From: Nanopusillaceae archaeon | Lineage (GTDB): Archaea > Nanobdellota > Nanobdellia > Nanobdellales > Nanobdellaceae | Direction of reading: 5' to 3' | Length of the DNA stretch: 32,000 nt | Assembly: GCA_049974095.1 (NCBI GenBank) | Contig: JBMFJD010000006.1 | Coordinates: forward strand, 27,895-59,894 | Shown: piece after piece, positions 3,440-29,372 of the stretch | Numbering within the stretch: position 1 is the stretch's first letter | Layout: the number at the start of each line of letters is the position of its first letter | The notes under the pieces: model-generated | What the model saw: the letters and a program-made list of their open reading frames with translations, nothing else | Told to the model about the DNA's origin: nothing | Database searches by the model: none | Position numbers and translations under genes: made by a program

Positions 3440-3460
3440 AACACATATAAATATTTGTAT
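3440..3460 (+). promoter_or_regulatory. Copy 3 of the promoter/operator-like motif, plus orientation
   Basis: AACACATATAAATATTTGTAT is the reverse complement of the 22-mer with one T missing. It sits in the divergent region between the RHH gene and the secreted-protein operon that starts at 3512. Confidence 0.4.
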
Positions 3461-3511
3461 CAATAATGTTAAACTAAGAATACATAAAAATAAATATCGA
3501 AATATATATTT

Positions 3512-4102
3512 ATGGTAAAAAAAATATTAGCAGCGCTTTTATTAATCATGGCACTATCAATACCAATATTTTCCGAATATGTAGAGGCGAAACTAGTAGG
3601 AGTATATAGCATACAAGTAGGGTCAAATAAGTTAACAATTTCTAATGGTCATGTTGATCTACCATTTATGACAACAAATGGAACACTAGTAGTAGAAACA
3701 AAGCATGGAAACTTTAATATGGTATTTCATGGAGAGATGACAGTAACTCAAGAGGGAACAAATATGACAGTAGTAAAGTTTGTACATGAAAATAGAGTAA
3801 CATATATCAATATAGCTGTATACGAGAATATGACAAAGATAACAGAAAAATTCTTTGAGCACTTTGTACATACATATGGAGTAAATCTAACACAAAACAT
3901 TACAATAAGACCAGTTGATAATGATACATTTGTATTAGAAGCAAAGCAAAATGCTACTGCAATGTTGTTATGGTTTATACCAATACGTGTGGTAATAGGG
4001 GAACAAATGTATGTAAATGCAACTAATGGAAATGTAGAGAAAGTAGTATATATAAGGCCATGGTGGTGGTTCTTAGTATTTGGATATAAGACTGAACAAT
4101 GA
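3512..4102 (+). CDS. Secreted or membrane-associated glycoprotein (signal peptide)
   Basis: The N-terminus MVKKILAALLLIMALSIPIFSEYVEA is signal-peptide-like. Multiple N-x-S/T sequons (NGT, NMT x2, NLT, NIT, NDT, NAT x2). Hydrophobic C-terminus WWWFLVFGY. ATGA overlap with the next gene. Confidence 0.65.
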   Translation: MVKKILAALLLIMALSIPIFSEYVEAKLVGVYSIQVGSNKLTISNGHVDLPFMTTNGTLVVETKHGNFNMVFHGEMTVTQEGTNMTVVKFVHENRVTYINIAVYENMTKITEKFFEHFVHTYGVNLTQNITIRPVDNDTFVLEAKQNATAMLLWFIPIRVVIGEQMYVNATNGNVEKVVYIRPWWWFLVFGYKTEQ

Positions 4103-14751: not shown

Positions 14752-17608
14752 AAGAGTATTAGCTTTAATAGGTATTATTTTATTATTTTCTTATAGCATA
14801 TACCCAGATCAATATATAACTGTAATTAGTGGTCAGCTAGGATCAGGATCTCAAGTTAATATATGTTATAATACAACTTCAACAAAACACTATTATATTA
14901 TTCAAAATAATCCATATTTACAGTATTATCCATTATTTGGTGGTATTAATACATACACAGGTAATATATACTTTACGGGATTATTAAATTCAAGGTATTC
15001 ACAATATTCAAATAATACATTAACTTTTATTCATGATATATCAAGTGGTAATACGTTTTTACAATTTGTGTCTCCTGATGGTGCTATATCTGCAAATATA
15101 TTGAATAATCCATACAACATGCTTTCTCCAATAACATTTGTATCAATGCCATCTATACAGTTTACAGGAAATAATGTTACTATATCATATATTGCTATCG
15201 GTAATTCTCCAGGAATATACTCTTATCAATTGGGACAACCTGTAGGTGTATCAAAACAGGTTTATGAATGTCCTGCTCCAATAGTCAATATAATATCACC
15301 AGTTAATGAATCATCATTCAGTTCAGGACAAGTATTTAATCTGACAGTGCAAGATGCACCAGTATATAATAACTTATCTATATCTGCAATACAATATATA
15401 ATACTTGTTAATGACCAAGTCTATACACAAAATATAACTATACCACCCCAACCTTATACTGGGTCTATAAGAAATTTCCCAATAACAATTAATGCTGGAG
15501 GTAATACCACTATAAAAGCCATTGTAGCATATCAATATTCTTCTGGATGTATTGGAATAAATGCTACATCAATAAGTGTATACATTACAGCTCCATTTCA
15601 ATTGGTAATAAATAATATTGAGCCAATAAGAGCTGTACCAAATACTTCAATAGGATACAATGTAATAAGTTCTACAAATTTATCAGTTAAGTTTACATTT
15701 TCTGGTAATGTATTATATCCAACACAGTTGGTCTGTTCAATATCGGCAAATCTATTATCACCTTGTTCAAATGAAACAGGATTATCTTCAATAATTACAT
15801 TATATGGACCAGTAACATATACAGGACCAGAAGTTTCGCCTACAGTGTATTTAAATATGACAAATGCAATACAAGGTATATACAGAGTATCAGTAATATG
15901 TAATATAAGTTCAACAACTCTATCAAAATTTGTAGATATATTATATGCATATAACCCAAATACTTGTAAATTGTTCTGTTCAGCATTAAATGGATACTAT
16001 AATGGAACATATTGTTGTGGCTATGGTGGAGAACAACTACCATCTCAAGTAACTGGATATCCAGACCCAACATATTATAATTCATCAACATGTTCCTTGG
16101 TAAAGTTACAGCCAGGACAATGTGTAAATAATAAAGATGTTCCTCCAGACGGATGGATATGTATAAACTCTACAACTGCAGCATATGTTAATTATTCATG
16201 TAGTGTTAATTATCCAAAGATAGATCCTCTTGCTATAGGACAAATAATACAAAATATAACTACATTAAAAGATTGTGGACCAGATGCAGTATGTTCATAT
16301 GGACAATGTGTACCAATAGGTCAAAATATAACACCATCACTATCAATAGAAGTAATTTATCCACAACAAGAACAAAATATATATGCACCAGATGGAACTA
16401 TATTTGTAGAGTTTATACCAAGGGACAATATACAACCGGAGGTATTATGTAGATTATATAATAATAACGTTATGGTATCTGAGGGAAGGTATGCTAGTGG
16501 AAATATAACAATAGTACAGATACCAGTAAAGTCAGGATTAAATATACTCAATATAACATGTACTGATATATATAATATTACAAATTCTACGATGGTAAGA
16601 TTTATGGTAACAACAGGTTATATAGTTACCTCTCCTAAAGGATGTGGTTTACCTTATGTATGTTTATCACCTACCCAAGCAGCACTTGTAAAATATGATA
16701 TTGTTGGAGGCATGTGTAATTATACCGTAATACAGACTTATAATGCTTCACCAGGGCAATACTGTTTTGGAGGTTATCTAATAAATGCAAGTCAAGTATC
16801 AGTTTCAGAACAATTATTCGGAAAGTCTTGTTCACCAGATTTAATGACAATATTAATACAACAGTTAACACCAACTCAACAAGGAGTAGCAGTAAATCTG
16901 TATCCTATACAAACAGCTAAATATAGATGTATGTTTGGATTATCTATAGAACCAGATCAACTACAATCATTTGATAAAATGATAATACCAGTATGTACTC
17001 CAAATAATACAATAGAAGAATATCAAATATTTGCGCAAAATGGAACAATATTGTTTGAAAAGATTGGTGAGAAACAGTGTAATAATCTATGTGTTGCAGG
17101 ACTTTGTGTACAACCAGGATATATAATACAGCCACCAACTGTACAATTGATTAGTGTACCTAAAAAAGTTGCGGTTGGAGATAATGTAACAGTTTCATTT
17201 ATGGTATCAAGTGCATATCCAACAGCCTATGTACAGATATATGTAGTATCACCAAAGAATTCAACCTTAGTATATAGTGGTGTATTTGAAACTAACAAAT
17301 TGGTAGATGCTACATTTATAATGCCGGATCCAGATCAAGCAGAGATATATGTGTTTGCTCTTGACCCAGCTGGTTTTACAGGTTCATCTTCAGAAGTGGT
17401 AGAATTAACATCTGCTGTTACAACACCAGAAACAGGTCCAACACCTACACCAACTCCTCCAACAGGAGTTGGAGGAGGATTACCTTCTGTAGGAGCAGCA
17501 ATTGCTTCTGCTTTAACCTCACAAGGAGGTCCTAATATCATATTAATACTAATTGCTATAGCTATTGGTTCTGCTGTAGCATACTACTACTTTAGAAAGA
17601 GAAGATAG
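14744..17608 (+). CDS. Large secreted protein: Ig-like domains, two Cys-rich modules, Thr/Pro stalk, C-terminal TM + RKRR
   Basis: 954 aa with signal peptide MAKRVLALIGIILLFSYSIYP. Cys-rich stretches end in CGPDAVCSYGQCVPIG and CNNLCVAGLCVQPG. The C-terminus is TTPETGPTPTPTPPTGVGGGLPS...IILILIAIAIGSAVAYYYFRKRR. Confidence 0.85.
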   Translation: MAKRVLALIGIILLFSYSIYPDQYITVISGQLGSGSQVNICYNTTSTKHYYIIQNNPYLQYYPLFGGINTYTGNIYFTGLLNSRYSQYSNNTLTFIHDISSGNTFLQFVSPDGAISANILNNPYNMLSPITFVSMPSIQFTGNNVTISYIAIGNSPGIYSYQLGQPVGVSKQVYECPAPIVNIISPVNESSFSSGQVFNLTVQDAPVYNNLSISAIQYIILVNDQVYTQNITIPPQPYTGSIRNFPITINAGGNTTIKAIVAYQYSSGCIGINATSISVYITAPFQLVINNIEPIRAVPNTSIGYNVISSTNLSVKFTFSGNVLYPTQLVCSISANLLSPCSNETGLSSIITLYGPVTYTGPEVSPTVYLNMTNAIQGIYRVSVICNISSTTLSKFVDILYAYNPNTCKLFCSALNGYYNGTYCCGYGGEQLPSQVTGYPDPTYYNSSTCSLVKLQPGQCVNNKDVPPDGWICINSTTAAYVNYSCSVNYPKIDPLAIGQIIQNITTLKDCGPDAVCSYGQCVPIGQNITPSLSIEVIYPQQEQNIYAPDGTIFVEFIPRDNIQPEVLCRLYNNNVMVSEGRYASGNITIVQIPVKSGLNILNITCTDIYNITNSTMVRFMVTTGYIVTSPKGCGLPYVCLSPTQAALVKYDIVGGMCNYTVIQTYNASPGQYCFGGYLINASQVSVSEQLFGKSCSPDLMTILIQQLTPTQQGVAVNLYPIQTAKYRCMFGLSIEPDQLQSFDKMIIPVCTPNNTIEEYQIFAQNGTILFEKIGEKQCNNLCVAGLCVQPGYIIQPPTVQLISVPKKVAVGDNVTVSFMVSSAYPTAYVQIYVVSPKNSTLVYSGVFETNKLVDATFIMPDPDQAEIYVFALDPAGFTGSSSEVVELTSAVTTPETGPTPTPTPPTGVGGGLPSVGAAIASALTSQGGPNIILILIAIAIGSAVAYYYFRKRR

Positions 17609-17620
17609 TAGCATGGTTCA

Positions 17621-17627
17621 TTTTTTT
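17621..17627 (+). terminator. T7 tract terminator candidate
   Basis: TTTTTTT lies 13 nt after the stop at 17608, with a further T5 at about 17637. Confidence 0.35.
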
Positions 17628-17668
17628 AGAAATTAACATTTTTATTGATGAAATATTAAATAATTATT

Positions 17669-18109
17669 ATGGTATCTATACTGGATAGAATAAGCGCAAA
17701 AGAAACACTAGTGTTATTTGTAGCATCAGCATTTACAGTATTTCTAGTAGCAGCAATAATCTCAATGTTCGGAGTTAGCAGCACTCTAGGATTTATATTA
17801 TTGGCATTATCAGGAGTAGCATTAGGATTTGTCTTGAGCAGATATGCACCACAAATAGCAGCATATCTAAAGTCACAACCATTAACGGCTATTTTAGCTG
17901 TTTCAGCTTTGTTAGGAGTATCAGGATTTGTAGCTGTATTTCTAGCATTTATACCAACACCATACGCTGCAACAGGTACAATTACATTATCTGCTGCAGC
18001 AATACAATCAGCATTAGGAACAGGAATTAACAATTTTATAACAATGTCACTATCAGGATTTATAATGGGCGTAGGTAGCTATTTCGGAGTGTCAGTATTT
18101 GGTAAATAA
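17669..18109 (+). CDS. Small, very hydrophobic 4-TM protein (A/G/S/V-rich, GC-richer); candidate major virion membrane/capsid protein
   Basis: 146 aa, almost entirely hydrophobic helices (LVLFVASAFTVFLVAAIISMFGV, LGFILLALSGVALGFVL, LTAILAVSALLGVSGFVAVFLAFI, ITMSLSGFIMGVGSYFGVSVFG). It has its own upstream A/T box and follows a terminator. Confidence 0.7.
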   Translation: MVSILDRISAKETLVLFVASAFTVFLVAAIISMFGVSSTLGFILLALSGVALGFVLSRYAPQIAAYLKSQPLTAILAVSALLGVSGFVAVFLAFIPTPYAATGTITLSAAAIQSALGTGINNFITMSLSGFIMGVGSYFGVSVFGK

Positions 18110-18122
18110 CACGTGAGGCTAG

Positions 18123-18833
18123 ATGAATTTAAAATATTTTTTAATAATCCTATCTTTTATATTTATACTAATTAATATATTTTTAGCTGTACTAATATAT
18201 AATTTTATAATTGTATCACCTTCATTTAGTATCTCTTTATCATCTAACTATACATTTCCATATGTAGATACAAAAAATTCATTAATACTACCAGGATCGA
18301 TGGTTGTTTTAGCTACTTCTAATACTCCTGGATTTTCAATTAATTTAGATAGACCTACATTTTTATGGTCTGCTGGAATAGGATACCTGTTATTGTCTTT
18401 ATCAATATTTTTTATAATATTGGGAATAGCATTAATCATAACATATGAAGAAAATAATATTGTTTATGGACTACTATTGATTTTGCTATCACCAATTATT
18501 TTTGCATTATCCATTGTATTTAACTCACTGTCATACCCTGGTGATATCTTATGTTATAAAAAGCAAATACATAATCATTACTCATATATATGCCATAAAT
18601 ATATCTATGGTAATAGTACAAATGTAGTTCTATTGAGAGTATACGATAATTCAACGGAAGTTATACCAATACAAGAGGTAACAGGAAAGATTGTTTATAA
18701 TATTCCACCACCAGTCGGTACATTATTGTTTATATATAAGTCCAGTTTAGATTTTATATCAACTTTATATGATATTATAACAAAAGGTAATATACCTCTA
18801 GGGTATAAGGTAGAATATATTAAAGTAGAATAG
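18123..18833 (+). CDS. Membrane protein (about 4 TM) with a C-terminal soluble domain
   Basis: 236 aa. TM segments YFLIILSFIFILINIFLAVLIYNFIIV, GYLLLSLSIFFIILGIALIITY and LLLILLSPIIFALSIVF. Confidence 0.6.
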   Translation: MNLKYFLIILSFIFILINIFLAVLIYNFIIVSPSFSISLSSNYTFPYVDTKNSLILPGSMVVLATSNTPGFSINLDRPTFLWSAGIGYLLLSLSIFFIILGIALIITYEENNIVYGLLLILLSPIIFALSIVFNSLSYPGDILCYKKQIHNHYSYICHKYIYGNSTNVVLLRVYDNSTEVIPIQEVTGKIVYNIPPPVGTLLFIYKSSLDFISTLYDIITKGNIPLGYKVEYIKVE

Positions 18834-18869
18834 AAAAAACTTTATATTTGTTGAATACATATTTATAGT

Positions 18870-19196
18870 ATGGCGTTATACCATGACAAAATCGTAATGG
18901 GGTGTACAAAAAAAGAGGGAAAACTAGTTTGCTATGCATACGATCTAAGTACGTTACCGTTAGGCGCTGAAGATCCTTCAATGGCTAGAAGAAAATGTGA
19001 AATAACATTTGAGGGTGTTGAACCACAATTTACTTTCAGTGGAGATGGAGGAATGAAATTATGTAATGATTTGCTAGAAAACTTAGGAGAAATAATAAAG
19101 AAATCATCCAATCTCGGTATACCTACGGCACAACTATATAAAATAGCATCTAAGTTAAGTCAATCACAGAATATTAGTGAACAAGGCCAGTCTTAA
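18870..19196 (+). CDS. Hypothetical soluble protein
   Basis: 108-aa ORF with an A/T-rich box upstream (TTTATATTTG...ATATTTATAG). No recognisable motif. Confidence 0.55.
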   Translation: MALYHDKIVMGCTKKEGKLVCYAYDLSTLPLGAEDPSMARRKCEITFEGVEPQFTFSGDGGMKLCNDLLENLGEIIKKSSNLGIPTAQLYKIASKLSQSQNISEQGQS

Positions 19197-19198
19197 TA

Positions 19199-19471
19199 AT
19201 GTTAGCTAATATTTTTATTTTTCAATTATCAGTTATTGCAGATATCATATTATTCGGATTTGGCATATATATGTCATATAGGAATAGAATAACAGAGATA
19301 CCAGATGTTTTACATGCTGTAATGATTGGAATATACTCTTCAGCATTTTTATCATTTATGTTATTTCAAGTTAATCCATTATTTATTATAGGTACTGGTT
19401 TTGATTGGTTTATTTCGTATGTAAGTGGATGGTTAATTGGATTATCAATTAACAAACTTATCTCATCTTAG
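19199..19471 (+). CDS. Small membrane protein (3 TM)
   Basis: 90 aa, starting 2 nt after the previous stop. Hydrophobic helices throughout. Its 3' end overlaps the convergent MCM gene by 14 nt. Confidence 0.5.
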   Translation: MLANIFIFQLSVIADIILFGFGIYMSYRNRITEIPDVLHAVMIGIYSSAFLSFMLFQVNPLFIIGTGFDWFISYVSGWLIGLSINKLISS

Positions 19472-20615
19472 TTATATCTGCTATTTTATCATATACTTCG
19501 TAGACTATTTTATCTGTGATATGTGTCTTATTTATTTTTGCATATGCGTATGCAAATCTTAACCATTTTATAGAGCCTCTAACACTGTTTTCCTTTGATT
19601 CTTCTATGATATCACCAATGGCATTTTTTACACCATTAATATCTTTGATTCTCGGTATAAATCCTTCTGTAAATTTTATATATGATCTTATTATATCATC
19701 TCCTCTATTATACAATTCATAGTTACTTGAATGTTCTATAACATGACCTACAATATCTTTAATCTCTTTTTTTGTTGGTGTTTTAAACGATGCTACCAAA
19801 TCAAATCTATCTAATAATTCTGGCCTAAATTTAGTCCTGTTAGAGGATATCATAATTCTAACTTTAGCATCATATCCTATATGCATTCTAGCACCTGTAA
19901 GTATTACTCTACCTTCTTCCATAGCAGATAATAAAGGATCAAGATCTCTATTATTTATTTTATCTGCTTCATCTATACATAATATTTTACCATTAGCAGC
20001 CATTAGTGGTGGAGGTGAAGCTTCAAAAGCCTCTGGGTTTAATGATCCAGATAAGCCAGCAGATGTAGTTCTTAAAGATAAATATATGCCCTCTGATACA
20101 TTAGCTTGCCATTGTAATAATAATGTTTTACCAGTACCAGGATCACCTAACAGAGCAATGTGTATTCTTGATCTAAATCCAGGATCTCCATCAGAAAATA
20201 ACTGCAATAGCATTATTTTTTTTACTAATGGTATGATACCAGAATCTTTAACATATGGTGCTACATATTGTAATAAATCATCAAAAGGATTTTTTAATGT
20301 TATTTTACTATTATTGATTTCAAGATCTTTGTATCTTTTGTATTCGTTAATCATATCTAATAATTTATTTATTGATACTATCTCTATAATTCTTGGATAA
20401 TATGGATTTCTTCTAGCAATTTGGTTATCAAATAAAAATCTTATAGTATTCTGACTTACTAATCCCATTAGATCATCTTCAAATACTATAATATCAGAAT
20501 ATATAGGTATACCTATTAATTTTGCTTTGTCATGGTAGTACGGTAAGGCATACTCTAAAAATTCGAACAAATTTTTAAGATCTTTGATAATGTCCTTAGC
20601 AATATTGTGACCCAT
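19458..20615 (-). CDS. mcm: MCM-family AAA+ helicase, short form (mini-MCM: about 150-aa N-terminal region + AAA+ core + lid)
   Basis: Walker A LLGDPGTGKT (nt 20126-20152, read on minus). Walker B ILCIDEADK (19959-19979), compared with MCM CIDEFDK. SAMEEGRVILTGA compared with MCM EAMEQQTISIAKAG. Sensor-1 IMISSNR. Arginine finger LLDRFDL compared with MCM SRFDL. Sensor-2-like SVRGSIKWLRFAYAYAKI. Confidence 0.85.
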   Translation of the reverse strand: MGHNIAKDIIKDLKNLFEFLEYALPYYHDKAKLIGIPIYSDIIVFEDDLMGLVSQNTIRFLFDNQIARRNPYYPRIIEIVSINKLLDMINEYKRYKDLEINNSKITLKNPFDDLLQYVAPYVKDSGIIPLVKKIMLLQLFSDGDPGFRSRIHIALLGDPGTGKTLLLQWQANVSEGIYLSLRTTSAGLSGSLNPEAFEASPPPLMAANGKILCIDEADKINNRDLDPLLSAMEEGRVILTGARMHIGYDAKVRIMISSNRTKFRPELLDRFDLVASFKTPTKKEIKDIVGHVIEHSSNYELYNRGDDIIRSYIKFTEGFIPRIKDINGVKNAIGDIIEESKENSVRGSIKWLRFAYAYAKINKTHITDKIVYEVYDKIADITKMR

Positions 20616-20652
20616 AAATAAATATTAAAAATGTTTATAATAAAAATAGTTT

Positions 20653-20943
20653 ATGGGTAAACACATGTCAATACGTGCATATGTACTACTGGCATTAGTA
20701 TTGTTACTAACGATATCAGTGATTATGGTACTGGTCTTTTCATTATATAATAAACCTAATAGCACAAAGAATGTATCAACGATACAATTCGGGCAAAATA
20801 CACTGTACATATATAATATAAATGGAAATATATATGTATGTACACAAAATATATCGGGCGAGACATGTTTGGTGGCTCATAACTCATTAATATGTCCGGA
20901 AACTACATGCCTGCAAATATATAATATAGTAAATATATCATGA
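20653..20943 (+). CDS. Small secreted or anchored Cys-containing protein
   Basis: 96 aa. N-terminal TM segment AYVLLALVLLLTISVIMVLVFSL, sequons, 4 Cys. ATGA overlap with the next gene. Confidence 0.5.
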   Translation: MGKHMSIRAYVLLALVLLLTISVIMVLVFSLYNKPNSTKNVSTIQFGQNTLYIYNINGNIYVCTQNISGETCLVAHNSLICPETTCLQIYNIVNIS

Positions 20944-21461
20944 AGTCAACATTCAAATACGCTAAGATGGTAATAGACATATTACAAGTAATATACAATA
21001 ACCCTGGCATATCTATCTCAGAGTTAAGAAAAATTTTTAATTTACCATCATCTACAATGTCTATAATTATAAAAGAATTGAAAGATTCTGGTATAGTATT
21101 TACCTTAGAAGATAAGAAGAAAATTATTGTAAATAGAAGAAATGGTGATAGTTATGAAAGAGTAGTAAAAATAAAGAAGGTATTTCCTTTAGGTGTATCA
21201 TGTAACTCATTTGGTACTGTAATAATACCACATATAGTTAATTCAAATTCAAATTCTGGCTCGTATAATATTGGTTTAAAAGTTTTTAGTTGTCCGTTTG
21301 TTAAAGAATGTCCTTATGTAAATCAAAAAACATTAATACCAGGATATTGTAAATTATATGATCATCTATCCGATGAAGAGAAGAAAGCAATAATCAGTAT
21401 AATGGATAAAATCAATAGTCTGATAGAACTGGCTAAATATAGTACATCTCAAAAAAATTGA
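20940..21461 (+). CDS. wHTH transcription regulator with a C-terminal Cys cluster
   Basis: 173 aa. ILQVIYNNPGISISELRKIFNLPSSTMSIIIKELKDSGIVFTLED is an ArsR/MarR-like wHTH. Downstream lies CNSF...SCPFVKECPYVNQKTLIPGYC. Confidence 0.6.
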   Translation: MKSTFKYAKMVIDILQVIYNNPGISISELRKIFNLPSSTMSIIIKELKDSGIVFTLEDKKKIIVNRRNGDSYERVVKIKKVFPLGVSCNSFGTVIIPHIVNSNSNSGSYNIGLKVFSCPFVKECPYVNQKTLIPGYCKLYDHLSDEEKKAIISIMDKINSLIELAKYSTSQKN

Positions 21462-25469: not shown

Positions 25470-25491
25470 ATAACAAATATTTATATGTGTT
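25470..25491 (-). promoter_or_regulatory. Copy 1 of the exact 22-nt promoter/operator-like motif
   Basis: ATAACAAATATTTATATGTGTT (minus-strand reading AACACATATAAATATTTGTTAT). Separated by 11 nt from the minus-strand ATG at 25458. Identical to 28278-28299. Confidence 0.6.
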
Positions 25492-28277: not shown

Positions 28278-28299
28278 ATAACAAATATTTATATGTGTT
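28278..28299 (-). promoter_or_regulatory. Copy 2 of the exact 22-nt promoter/operator-like motif
   Basis: ATAACAAATATTTATATGTGTT, identical to 25470-25491 and with the same 11-nt spacing to the downstream minus-strand ATG (28266). Confidence 0.6.
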
Positions 28300-29048: not shown

Positions 29049-29372
29049 ATGTCTAATTATAGGATAGGTTATTACTATGAGAGAAAAGTAAAGAAATATC
29101 TTGAGGATAAGGGAAATTATATAGCATGGAGAACACCAGGATCTAAGTCACCAATCGATATAATAGCTATAAACAAGGATACGGGAGAAGTTATACTTAT
29201 ACAAGTTAAAAAAACTAAATACAAAACGCAAGATGATATATATCGTAGTGAGGTAAAAGAATTAGAAAAATTTGCATCAATGTTTAAATCTGATAATATT
29301 AGGGTAGAGTTATGGGTTTTCTCAAATGAGGGCTTATCTATATATCAAATAAATAAGAATAATAAACAATAA
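29049..29372 (+). CDS. hjc: Holliday-junction resolvase Hjc-like PD-(D/E)xK nuclease homolog, with Q in place of the catalytic Glu
   Basis: GYYYERKVKKYLEDKGNYIAWRTPGSKSPIDIIAINKDTGEVILIQVKK aligns by eye with Sulfolobus Hjc GSAVERNIVSRLRDKGFAVVRAPASGSK..PIPDIIALKNGVIILIEMKS. E11, D37 and K54 are present. The ExK Glu is Q52 (CAA at 29202-29204). Confidence 0.75.
   Translation: MSNYRIGYYYERKVKKYLEDKGNYIAWRTPGSKSPIDIIAINKDTGEVILIQVKKTKYKTQDDIYRSEVKELEKFASMFKSDNIRVELWVFSNEGLSIYQINKNNKQ

Follow-up and report, generated by a model that had tools for sequence, protein, structure and literature searches.

The motor of archaeal and eukaryotic DNA replication is MCM, whose N-terminal tier is regarded as key to its loading, to its assembly into double hexamers and to its processivity. 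Here we describe the gene of a short MCM-like AAA+ ATPase of 385 amino acids (aa), found in a stretch of 32,000 nucleotides (nt) of contig JBMFJD010000006.1 from a Nanopusillaceae archaeon (GCA_049974095.1). This whole stretch is called the window below, and the positions of its features are collected in Table 1. The protein joins a trimmed MCM motor to a small N-terminal module that replaces the canonical MCM N-terminal domain. Judging from sequence, we give a probability of about 0.58 to the reading that it is the replication initiator-helicase of a virus-like element of Nanopusillaceae-type DPANN archaea.

Archaeal mobile genetic elements (MGEs) have captured MCM genes repeatedly (Krupovic et al. 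2010, as far as it is cited in PMC4889955 and PMC12934983). One of the closest described systems is BcMCM from a Bacillus cereus prophage, a 3'->5' helicase that works through an MCM AAA domain and has a non-canonical N-terminus (Samuels et al. 2009, PMC2715239). By its description, BcMCM resembles our protein in being encoded by an MGE, in being related to MCM in the AAA region only, and in having a replaced N-terminus. However, the N-terminus of BcMCM is primase-like and binds zinc and single-stranded DNA, whereas here it is a 108-aa Cys-free module of helices and a winged-helix-like unit. In addition, BcMCM belongs to a bacterial phage and the short protein to an archaeal element.

Viral MCMs of Thermococcales carry N-terminal helix-turn-helix extensions, and were proposed to combine origin recognition with unwinding (PMC12934983). 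Together with MCM1/2 of T. kodakarensis, they share with our case a virus-borne MCM, an added putative DNA-binding domain at the N-terminus, and no viral Orc1/Cdc6 (PMC12934983; PMC3239210). But these proteins are complete canonical MCMs, Zn finger included, extended by about 200 aa, whereas the protein described here has no canonical N-terminal tier and a core of the short type. The Rep proteins of staphylococcal islands (SaPI Rep2, SCCmec Cch) are self-loading helicases of the superfamily 6 (SF6) type with winged-helix (WH) domains (PMC9371898). The likeness would lie in an MGE initiator-helicase made of an AAA+ (SF6/MCM-like) motor and a WH origin-binding domain, moving 3'->5'. They differ in being bacterial and in having a C-terminal WH, and PDB searches found no close sequence similarity to them. 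Superfamily 3 helicases (papillomavirus E1, SV40 large T antigen) provide a functional analogy only, as they form a different AAA+ clade and gave no match above MCM. In E1 and large T antigen, an N-terminal targeting domain is combined with an AAA+ ring that pulls DNA by a single pre-sensor-1 (PS1) hairpin. As BcMCM, Cch/SaPI Rep and the Thermococcales viral MCMs show, MCM-like helicases with a non-canonical N-terminus were already on record from MGEs, so that our protein adds no new concept. Less well described, it seems, are how broad and coherent the short-type clade is, and that it supplies the only recognisable replication gene of an undescribed virus-like element family of Nanopusillaceae-type archaea.

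In both sequence and structure, the best match of the short protein is the canonical archaeal MCM of Saccharolobus solfataricus (SsoMCM, PDB 3F9V/6MII). The two share the AAA+ fold, Walker A and B, sensor 1, an SRFD-type Arg finger, sensor 2, the lid helix and a PS1 hairpin of equal length. The original prediction, made from the DNA alone, had quoted the motifs GDPGTGKT, CIDEADK, SAMEEGRVILTGA, SSNR and DRFDL plus an Arg in the lid. All of them were located, with SAMEEGRVILTGA spanning residues 230-242 and R346 as the lid Arg. In the family alignment, K163, D215/E216, N259, R270 and R346 are invariant across 22 members. Intact Walker A and B, sensor 1, trans Arg finger and sensor 2 indicate that the protein is built for oligomeric ATP hydrolysis. 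We also found 17 full-length homologues (374-410 aa, 38-79% identity) in which the N-terminus, the length and every catalytic residue are retained. Because of these homologues and of synteny in at least four other contigs, the open reading frame (ORF) is not a chance one and is under selection.

To assign the AAA+ clade, we compared profile, sequence and fold searches. The Pfam scan of the 385-aa protein gave PF00493 (MCM) at 65.7 bits against a cutoff of 23.3; the top NCBIfam match was MCM, and the top PHROGs match was an MCM-length 'DNA helicase' family. In the phmmer search of the PDB, SsoMCM ranked first (1.5e-11), and 59 of the 60 listed matches were MCM. The AlphaFold2 model had a mean predicted local distance difference test score (pLDDT) of 83.9, and its top 50 Foldseek matches in the PDB were all MCM subunits (E ~1e-17, query TM score ~0.6 over 311-392 columns). 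Motifs typical of MCM could be read directly (LLQLFS...R.RIH.ALLGDPGTGKT, TSAGLS, IDEADK). By fold, motif and profile, the protein is an MCM-type, oligomer-dependent ATPase of the MCM P-loop family. This agrees with the MCM core of the original prediction, which had named Mg-chelatase or MoxR as the contrary outcome; the profile searches gave MCM instead.

Compared with canonical MCM, the protein lacks the N-terminal tier, the C-terminal WH and the NPxxGRY loop of 13-14 residues. Its external-hairpin (EXT) and helix-2-insert regions are shorter, the PS1 Lys is not conserved, and the core identity is ~26%. We therefore rejected its membership in the canonical cellular-type MCMs, from which the N-terminal tier, the NPxxGRY loop, the C-terminal WH and the tree placement all separate it. 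The absence of a Zn-finger/OB N-terminal domain, claimed from about 150 residues ahead of Walker A without CxxC pairs, was borne out. There are 156 such residues, the single Cys of the whole protein is C213, and CxxC is absent. The canonical tier (helical A, Zn B, OB C) had no MCM_OB or MCM_N match, and only 108 residues precede the AAA+ domain. At the other end, the protein stops ~25 residues past the lid helix with no WH match.

The 108 N-terminal residues were modelled as a long helix (2-34), a winged-helix-like beta-H-H-beta-beta unit (42-79) and a linker helix. The beta-H-H-beta-beta unit, taken as about residues 36-81, reached a pLDDT of ~90. This module is conserved throughout the subfamily. 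When it was modelled alone, no significant fold match was found in the PDB (best Foldseek E = 0.13), and the weak matches were nearly all winged-helix proteins (SarA, TrmBL2, MarR, cullin WH-B, Z-alpha, STIV F93). Likewise, it had no Pfam or PDB sequence match, except a weak MarR match (E = 0.008) in one of 13 homologues. Thus the AlphaFold check proposed earlier for the N-terminus returned a confident helix and winged-helix-like fold, and it did not return a significant structural relative. From the model, we hypothesize that the module may be a DNA-binding winged helix.

The core itself also departs from canonical MCMs. We compared its loops in an alignment of 158 cores, comprising this protein, 136 other mostly short proteins and 21 canonical-type ones. 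The EXT region has 10 residues here and 10-11 in the short set, against mostly 15-16 in the canonical type. The helix-2-insert region has 25 residues here and mostly 21-25 in the short set, against 28-31. From sensor 1 to the Arg finger there are 12 residues here and 12-13 in the short set, against 24-28 (typically 26) in the 21 canonical-type cores. Since this link is just 12-13 residues long, the NPxxGRY loop is missing. The PS1 hairpin keeps the canonical length, with 44 residues from Walker B to sensor 1 and strands predicted at residues 236-240 and 245-249. Its tip reads TGAR here, in place of the canonical AKAG with its Lys, and the basic residue is not conserved in the subfamily. Among the three MCM hairpins, PS1 is the sole DNA-engaging site that was modelled as a beta-hairpin. 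The four core traits (EXT, helix-2 insert, NPxxGRY loop, PS1 Lys) are common to the short set, with at least 130 clusters of proteins of 280-550 aa, and separate it from the 21 canonical-type proteins.

The short MCM gene is the only recognisable replication gene of the element. Among the scanned ORFs of at least 90 aa in the window (29 by Pfam, 10 by PHROGs), we found no polymerase, primase, Orc1/Cdc6 or other helicase. In the reading that we prefer, six copies of the protein would form a ring, and the retained PS1 hairpin would be the pore loop that moves the DNA, the arrangement known from papillomavirus E1 and SV40 large T antigen. The N-terminal winged-helix-like module, perhaps together with a nearby winged helix-turn-helix (wHTH) protein with four conserved Cys, would target the ring to the origin of the element or to host replisome factors. 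Such targeting would bypass Orc1/Cdc6-dependent loading. Host primase and polymerase would then be recruited and copy the element; this step is proposed because the element has no other recognisable replication gene. An altered mode of loading or origin recognition, as the original prediction suggested, is plausible. The 'helicase' label is itself an inference. SsoMCM without its N-terminal tier keeps helicase activity.

Several observations weigh against an initiator-helicase. The PS1 tip Lys is essential in SsoMCM, and R/K at this tip is present solely in the four closest sequences. The EXT and helix-2-insert regions are trimmed, and the model has no beta-hairpin at either. Neither structure nor sequence searches gave a significant match for the N-terminal module, and the winged-helix-like part of it has more acidic than basic residues (4 K+R against 6 D+E), so protein-protein contacts fit as well as DNA binding. 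Near the gene, repeats, iterons and tandem repeats showed no convincing origin-like feature, and long A/T-rich repeats were not found. Furthermore, a full-length MCM and a primase lie beside a relative described below. If these two were genes of the element rather than of the host, the short protein would not have to act as the replicative helicase.

The surroundings of the gene are consistent with a virus-like element. The window has ~29% G+C and consists almost entirely of ORFans, with no tRNA or Rfam features. It holds large beta-rich proteins (722, 954, 908 and 1270 aa) and many small membrane proteins, and the short MCM gene itself is flanked by membrane and structural-looking ORFs. Only three neighbours had clear or partial matches: the wHTH protein, an Hjc-like resolvase, and a weak pilin-like signal. 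Three metagenomic contigs (L001, L005, L080) are collinear with the window over at least 20 kb (about 9.5-29.4 kb). In more distant family members (L003/L004 and L081, 41-46% identity), the short MCM gene stays within a few genes of the wHTH gene. By sequence and synteny, the short MCM belongs to the core genes of an element family (41-79% identity) that is collinear, rich in ORFans and binned with Nanopusillaceae. Two family members are annotated in NCBI on contigs of Nanopusillaceae metagenome-assembled genomes (MAGs).

We also searched virus and plasmid collections. Among annotated phage records (INPHARED), Megablast matched nothing to the 10 kb surrounding the gene. Tblastn of the protein against phage records returned only canonical MCMs of haloviruses and an Altiarchaeum virus (25-32% identity), and against plasmids only canonical MCMs. 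The 954-aa neighbour had no tblastn match in phage records, and IMG/VR held no close relative of either protein. Judged against INPHARED and IMG/VR, the window looks like an undescribed virus-like element; the nanoarchaeal virus NAV1 lies outside this comparison. NAV1 is reportedly the sole described nanoarchaeal virus, from work by Munson-McGee in 2020. To our knowledge, very few viruses are known for Nanopusillaceae-type DPANN archaea, and the short MCM would mark the replication module of a virus-like element family of these hosts.

The alternative that survives best, although we consider it unlikely, is a non-helicase AAA+ remodeller or regulator from MCM/MoxR/Mg-chelatase (pre-sensor-2-insert) stock. 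Such a protein could be a chaperone-like ATPase for assembly of the virion or host interface, or an ATP-dependent transcription or lysogeny switch acting with the wHTH protein. A chaperone-like virion role has been proposed for MoxR-type ATPases of other archaeal viruses. The resemblance to MoxR and BchI/ChlI lies in the pre-sensor-2-insert supergroup, a length of ~320-380 aa, weak profile matches, and a short segment between sensor 1 and the Arg finger (RPxLLDRF). Here this segment (NRTKFRPELLDRF) is of Mg-chelatase-like length. The Mg-chelatase model TIGR02030 aligns residues 201-362 to 169 positions, while the MCM model needs 192 for residues 147-315. Fold matches in BFVD include MoxR-like viral ATPases and ATV ORF618. 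The reduced DNA-contacting hairpins with their unconserved PS1 Lys, the membrane or structural-looking flanking ORFs, and the tight pairing with the wHTH gene also suit a remodeller. So does the tree with a MoxR outgroup, where short forms make one clade in few replicates.

However, MCM is ahead of every other AAA+ family by ~30 bits or more. AAA_5 scored 36.5 and AAA 30.7 bits in Pfam, Mg_chelatase (PF01078) scored 26.9 bits over 56 residues only (205-260), and AAA_3 (MoxR, PF07726) scored 13.6 bits, under its cutoff of 27. In NCBIfam, TIGR02030 scored 34.7 against a cutoff of 467, and YifB 21.7 against 362. On these scores, membership in MoxR, in Mg-chelatase BchI/ChlI and in YifB was rejected. 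The top PDB sequence and fold matches are MCM, and the MCM-typical motifs listed above are present, whereas MoxR lacks those of helix 2 and those ahead of Walker A. The scanned window ORFs contained no von Willebrand-type MoxR partner and no chelatase subunit, and no defence-system model matched.

The initiator-helicase reading must also be weighed against a loader, in which the protein is an Orc1/Cdc6-like initiator ring that brings host MCM, primase and polymerase to the element and is not the fork helicase. We regard this as quite improbable. Part of its evidence comes from the distant relative on contig L003 (ENA k141_576568). There, at 15676-20370, the element is adjoined by a primase of 435 aa in which PriS and PriL are fused, and by a full-length MCM of 891 aa, 5-8 kb from the short MCM of the element. 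This primase is related to the fused primases that DPANN archaea carry on contigs of 0.4-0.8 Mb. The end of an independent contig, L004, falls exactly at the junction of element and primase-MCM, which suggests an integration boundary; the L003 relative may thus be a provirus in a DPANN chromosome. Since a DPANN-type full-length MCM and PriS-PriL adjoin this possibly integrated relative, a host helicase would be available. An AAA+ domain plus a winged-helix-like unit follows the logic of Orc1/Cdc6, and trimmed pore hairpins would matter less for a loader. But Orc1/Cdc6 families were not among the Pfam or NCBIfam matches at E <= 1, and membership among these initiators was rejected. The fold and motifs are of MCM type with trans sensor-2/lid, and the winged-helix-like module is N-terminal, acidic and without a significant match.

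To examine how far the short type extends, we searched 1.84 billion cluster representatives with the family profile, and obtained 12,415 matches at E <= 1e-3, of which 664 reached E <= 1e-30. Nearly all of the ~115 top-scoring representatives have 280-550 aa, and lack CxxC pairs ahead of Walker A. Canonical-type MCMs begin at ~165 bits in this search, with one higher-ranked exception, a 1513-aa protein with MCM OB and MCM P-loop domains (P0083). Many short-type members are AAA+ only (~300-330 aa), and others have unrelated, unannotated N-terminal regions of 100-300 aa. PF00493 was present in all 10 other short-clade members scanned. Primase fusion partners were sought in 10 longer clade members, which showed just inteins or unannotated N-termini. 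In P0077, P0086, P0091 and P0097, inteins with LAGLIDADG homing endonucleases lie inside the AAA+ core; essential replication ATPases are typical hosts of inteins. More distantly related proteins were seen in MAGs of Methanoperedens, Bathyarchaeia, Thermoplasmatota and several DPANN lineages, as well as on a few IMG/VR contigs. The scan of GTDB genomes found distant relatives only, at 35% identity or less and from a variety of archaeal MAGs, together with bacterial matches of MoxR type, and the IMG/VR search with the family alignment found four distant loci only.

Taken together, these comparisons indicate that the short MCM-like proteins are a real, conserved and large uncharacterised group. 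Such a widespread family, with a trimmed MCM motor and a small unrelated N-terminal module, is a natural minimal system for what unwinding requires. A separate set of short proteins was also seen. P0025, P0026, P0028, P0151 and P0160 (387-506 aa) have canonical loop lengths and an NPxxGRF-type loop and cluster with canonical MCMs, so these are genuinely truncated canonical forms.

The phylogenetic placement proposed in the original prediction was carried out with rough neighbour-joining trees from one alignment, with sampling biased toward the query (best 150 matches). The split of canonical-type MCMs excludes the window protein in 92/100 replicates without a root and in 83/100 with a MoxR outgroup. 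The subfamily of the window protein (P0001-P0018) is monophyletic in 99/100 and 98/100. With the MoxR outgroup, the short forms make one clade in just 19/100, and the polarity of the indels is ambiguous. Thus the trees set the core outside the canonical clade, and they did not unite the short forms as one rooted clade. The earlier idea of a captured, N-terminally remodelled cellular MCM did not hold, as the core itself differs in its loops and the canonical clade excludes it. It is very improbable that the element recently took over a host MCM that merely lost its N-terminus: MCM genes have entered archaeal MGEs repeatedly and truncated canonical-type MCMs with canonical loop lengths exist (P0025, P0026, P0028), but the four indel states of the core match the short clade, the identity to canonical cores is low, and the subfamily, whose members keep their architecture at identities as low as 38%, is old in its own right. 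On these rough trees, the short type may instead be ancestral or a very old reduction.

The short-type family bears on whether mobile-element MCMs were borrowed from cells or form an independent old lineage. A broader scenario, which we hold as doubtful, is that short MCM-like proteins are an old and largely mobile-element lineage, sister to or older than the cellular MCMs. This lineage would lack the OB/Zn tier, the NPxxGRY loop, the external hairpin and the full helix-2 insert because it never gained them or shed them very early. Its members would self-load via interchangeable N-terminal modules, and the protein described here would be the sole replication protein of a new virus family of genome-reduced DPANN archaea. 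If the short clade were such an ancient lineage, it would offer a view of how the archaeal and eukaryotic replicative helicase was assembled, and a minimal model of MCM mechanics.

Table 1. Features of the short MCM-like gene and its neighbours (window positions, except the orthologues, which are given by contig)
Feature	Position	Strand	Details or basis
Short MCM-like AAA+ ATPase ORF, ATG to TAA	19458..20615	-	385 aa; PF00493 65.7 bits, homologues
N-terminal module, residues 1-108	20292..20615	-	AlphaFold2 pLDDT 83-84; replaces canonical MCM N-terminal domain
AAA+ alpha/beta core (MCM P-loop domain), residues 109-280	19776..20291	-	Pfam, PDB sequence and fold searches
Walker A GDPGTGKT, residues 157-164, K163 invariant	20124..20147	-	family alignment
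Helix-2-insert region, residues 188-212	19980..20054	-	25 residues, Pro-rich; short helices in the model
Walker B CIDEADK, residues 213-219, D215 and E216 invariant	19959..19979	-	family alignment
PS1 beta-hairpin, residues 236-249 (RVILTGARMHIGYD)	19869..19910	-	model, alignment
Sensor 1 SSNR, residues 257-260, N259 invariant	19836..19847	-	family alignment
Arginine finger DRFDL, residues 269-273, R270 invariant	19797..19811	-	family alignment
Pre-sensor-2 helices and lid, residues 281-385, lid helix WLRFAYAYAK	19461..19775	-	alignment, model
Sensor-2 Arg R346 in NSVRG of the lid	19575-19589	-	family alignment
Divergent intergenic region, 37 nt, 35/37 A/T (95%)	20616..20652	.	opposite ORF starts at 20653
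96-aa product with N-terminal hydrophobic segment, first gene of divergent operon	20653-20943	+	weak type IV pilin match
MarR/HTH_24 winged-helix (wHTH) protein	20940..21461	+	Pfam; alignment of 6 orthologues
wHTH orthologues	L001:9165-9647, L005:9168-9683, L080:9144-9668, L003:3775-4245, L081:8495-9028
Hjc-type Holliday-junction resolvase homologue	29049-29372	+	PF01870, E = 6e-10; also in L001, L005
146-aa very hydrophobic Ala/Gly/Val-rich protein	17669-18109	+	conserved in L001, L005, L080

The 3' end of the short MCM gene overlaps a convergent ORF (19199-19471) by 14 nt. At the 5' side, the divergent transcription from the ORF at 20653 over a short A/T-rich gap was found as the original prediction described it (Table 1). 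The gap is ~39 nt long in L001, L005 and L003, and ~332 nt between the called genes in L080. Direct reading revealed TATA-like runs ~27 nt upstream of both start codons. Their presence in both orientations suggests back-to-back promoters, and the gap probably serves leaderless transcripts on either side.

Across 31-82% identity, the wHTH gene never lies more than a few genes away from that of the short MCM. The C-terminal part of its product has four invariant Cys (C88, C118, C124, C137), and is likely a metal-binding domain. If the short MCM has a DNA-binding partner or regulator, the wHTH/4-Cys protein is the best candidate. Hjc-type resolvases, one of which is encoded in the window, are common in crenarchaeal double-stranded DNA viruses. 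The first gene of the divergent operon encodes the 96-aa product, whose match to the archaeal type IV pilin signal (PF07790, E = 0.005) is below the cutoff. The gene of the 146-aa hydrophobic protein lies in a locally G+C-richer stretch, and its product had no Pfam or PDB match. It is a candidate membrane or capsid protein like those of spindle-shaped archaeal viruses.

Two further observations were made in the window. A 196-aa ORF (3512-4102, forward strand) had a weak, sub-threshold match to the anti-CRISPR family AcrF1 (PF20829, E = 0.0047, 17.6 bits against a cutoff of 30.5), which is probably due to chance. In addition, a 22-nt motif, ATAACAAATATTTATATGTGTT, occurs in four copies, three direct (2619-2640, 25470-25491, 28278-28299) and one inverted (3440-3465). 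The copies are at or near the 5' ends of small genes, and the similarity extends to 38 nt between two of them. This motif may be a shared promoter/operator or a conserved N-terminal coding segment.

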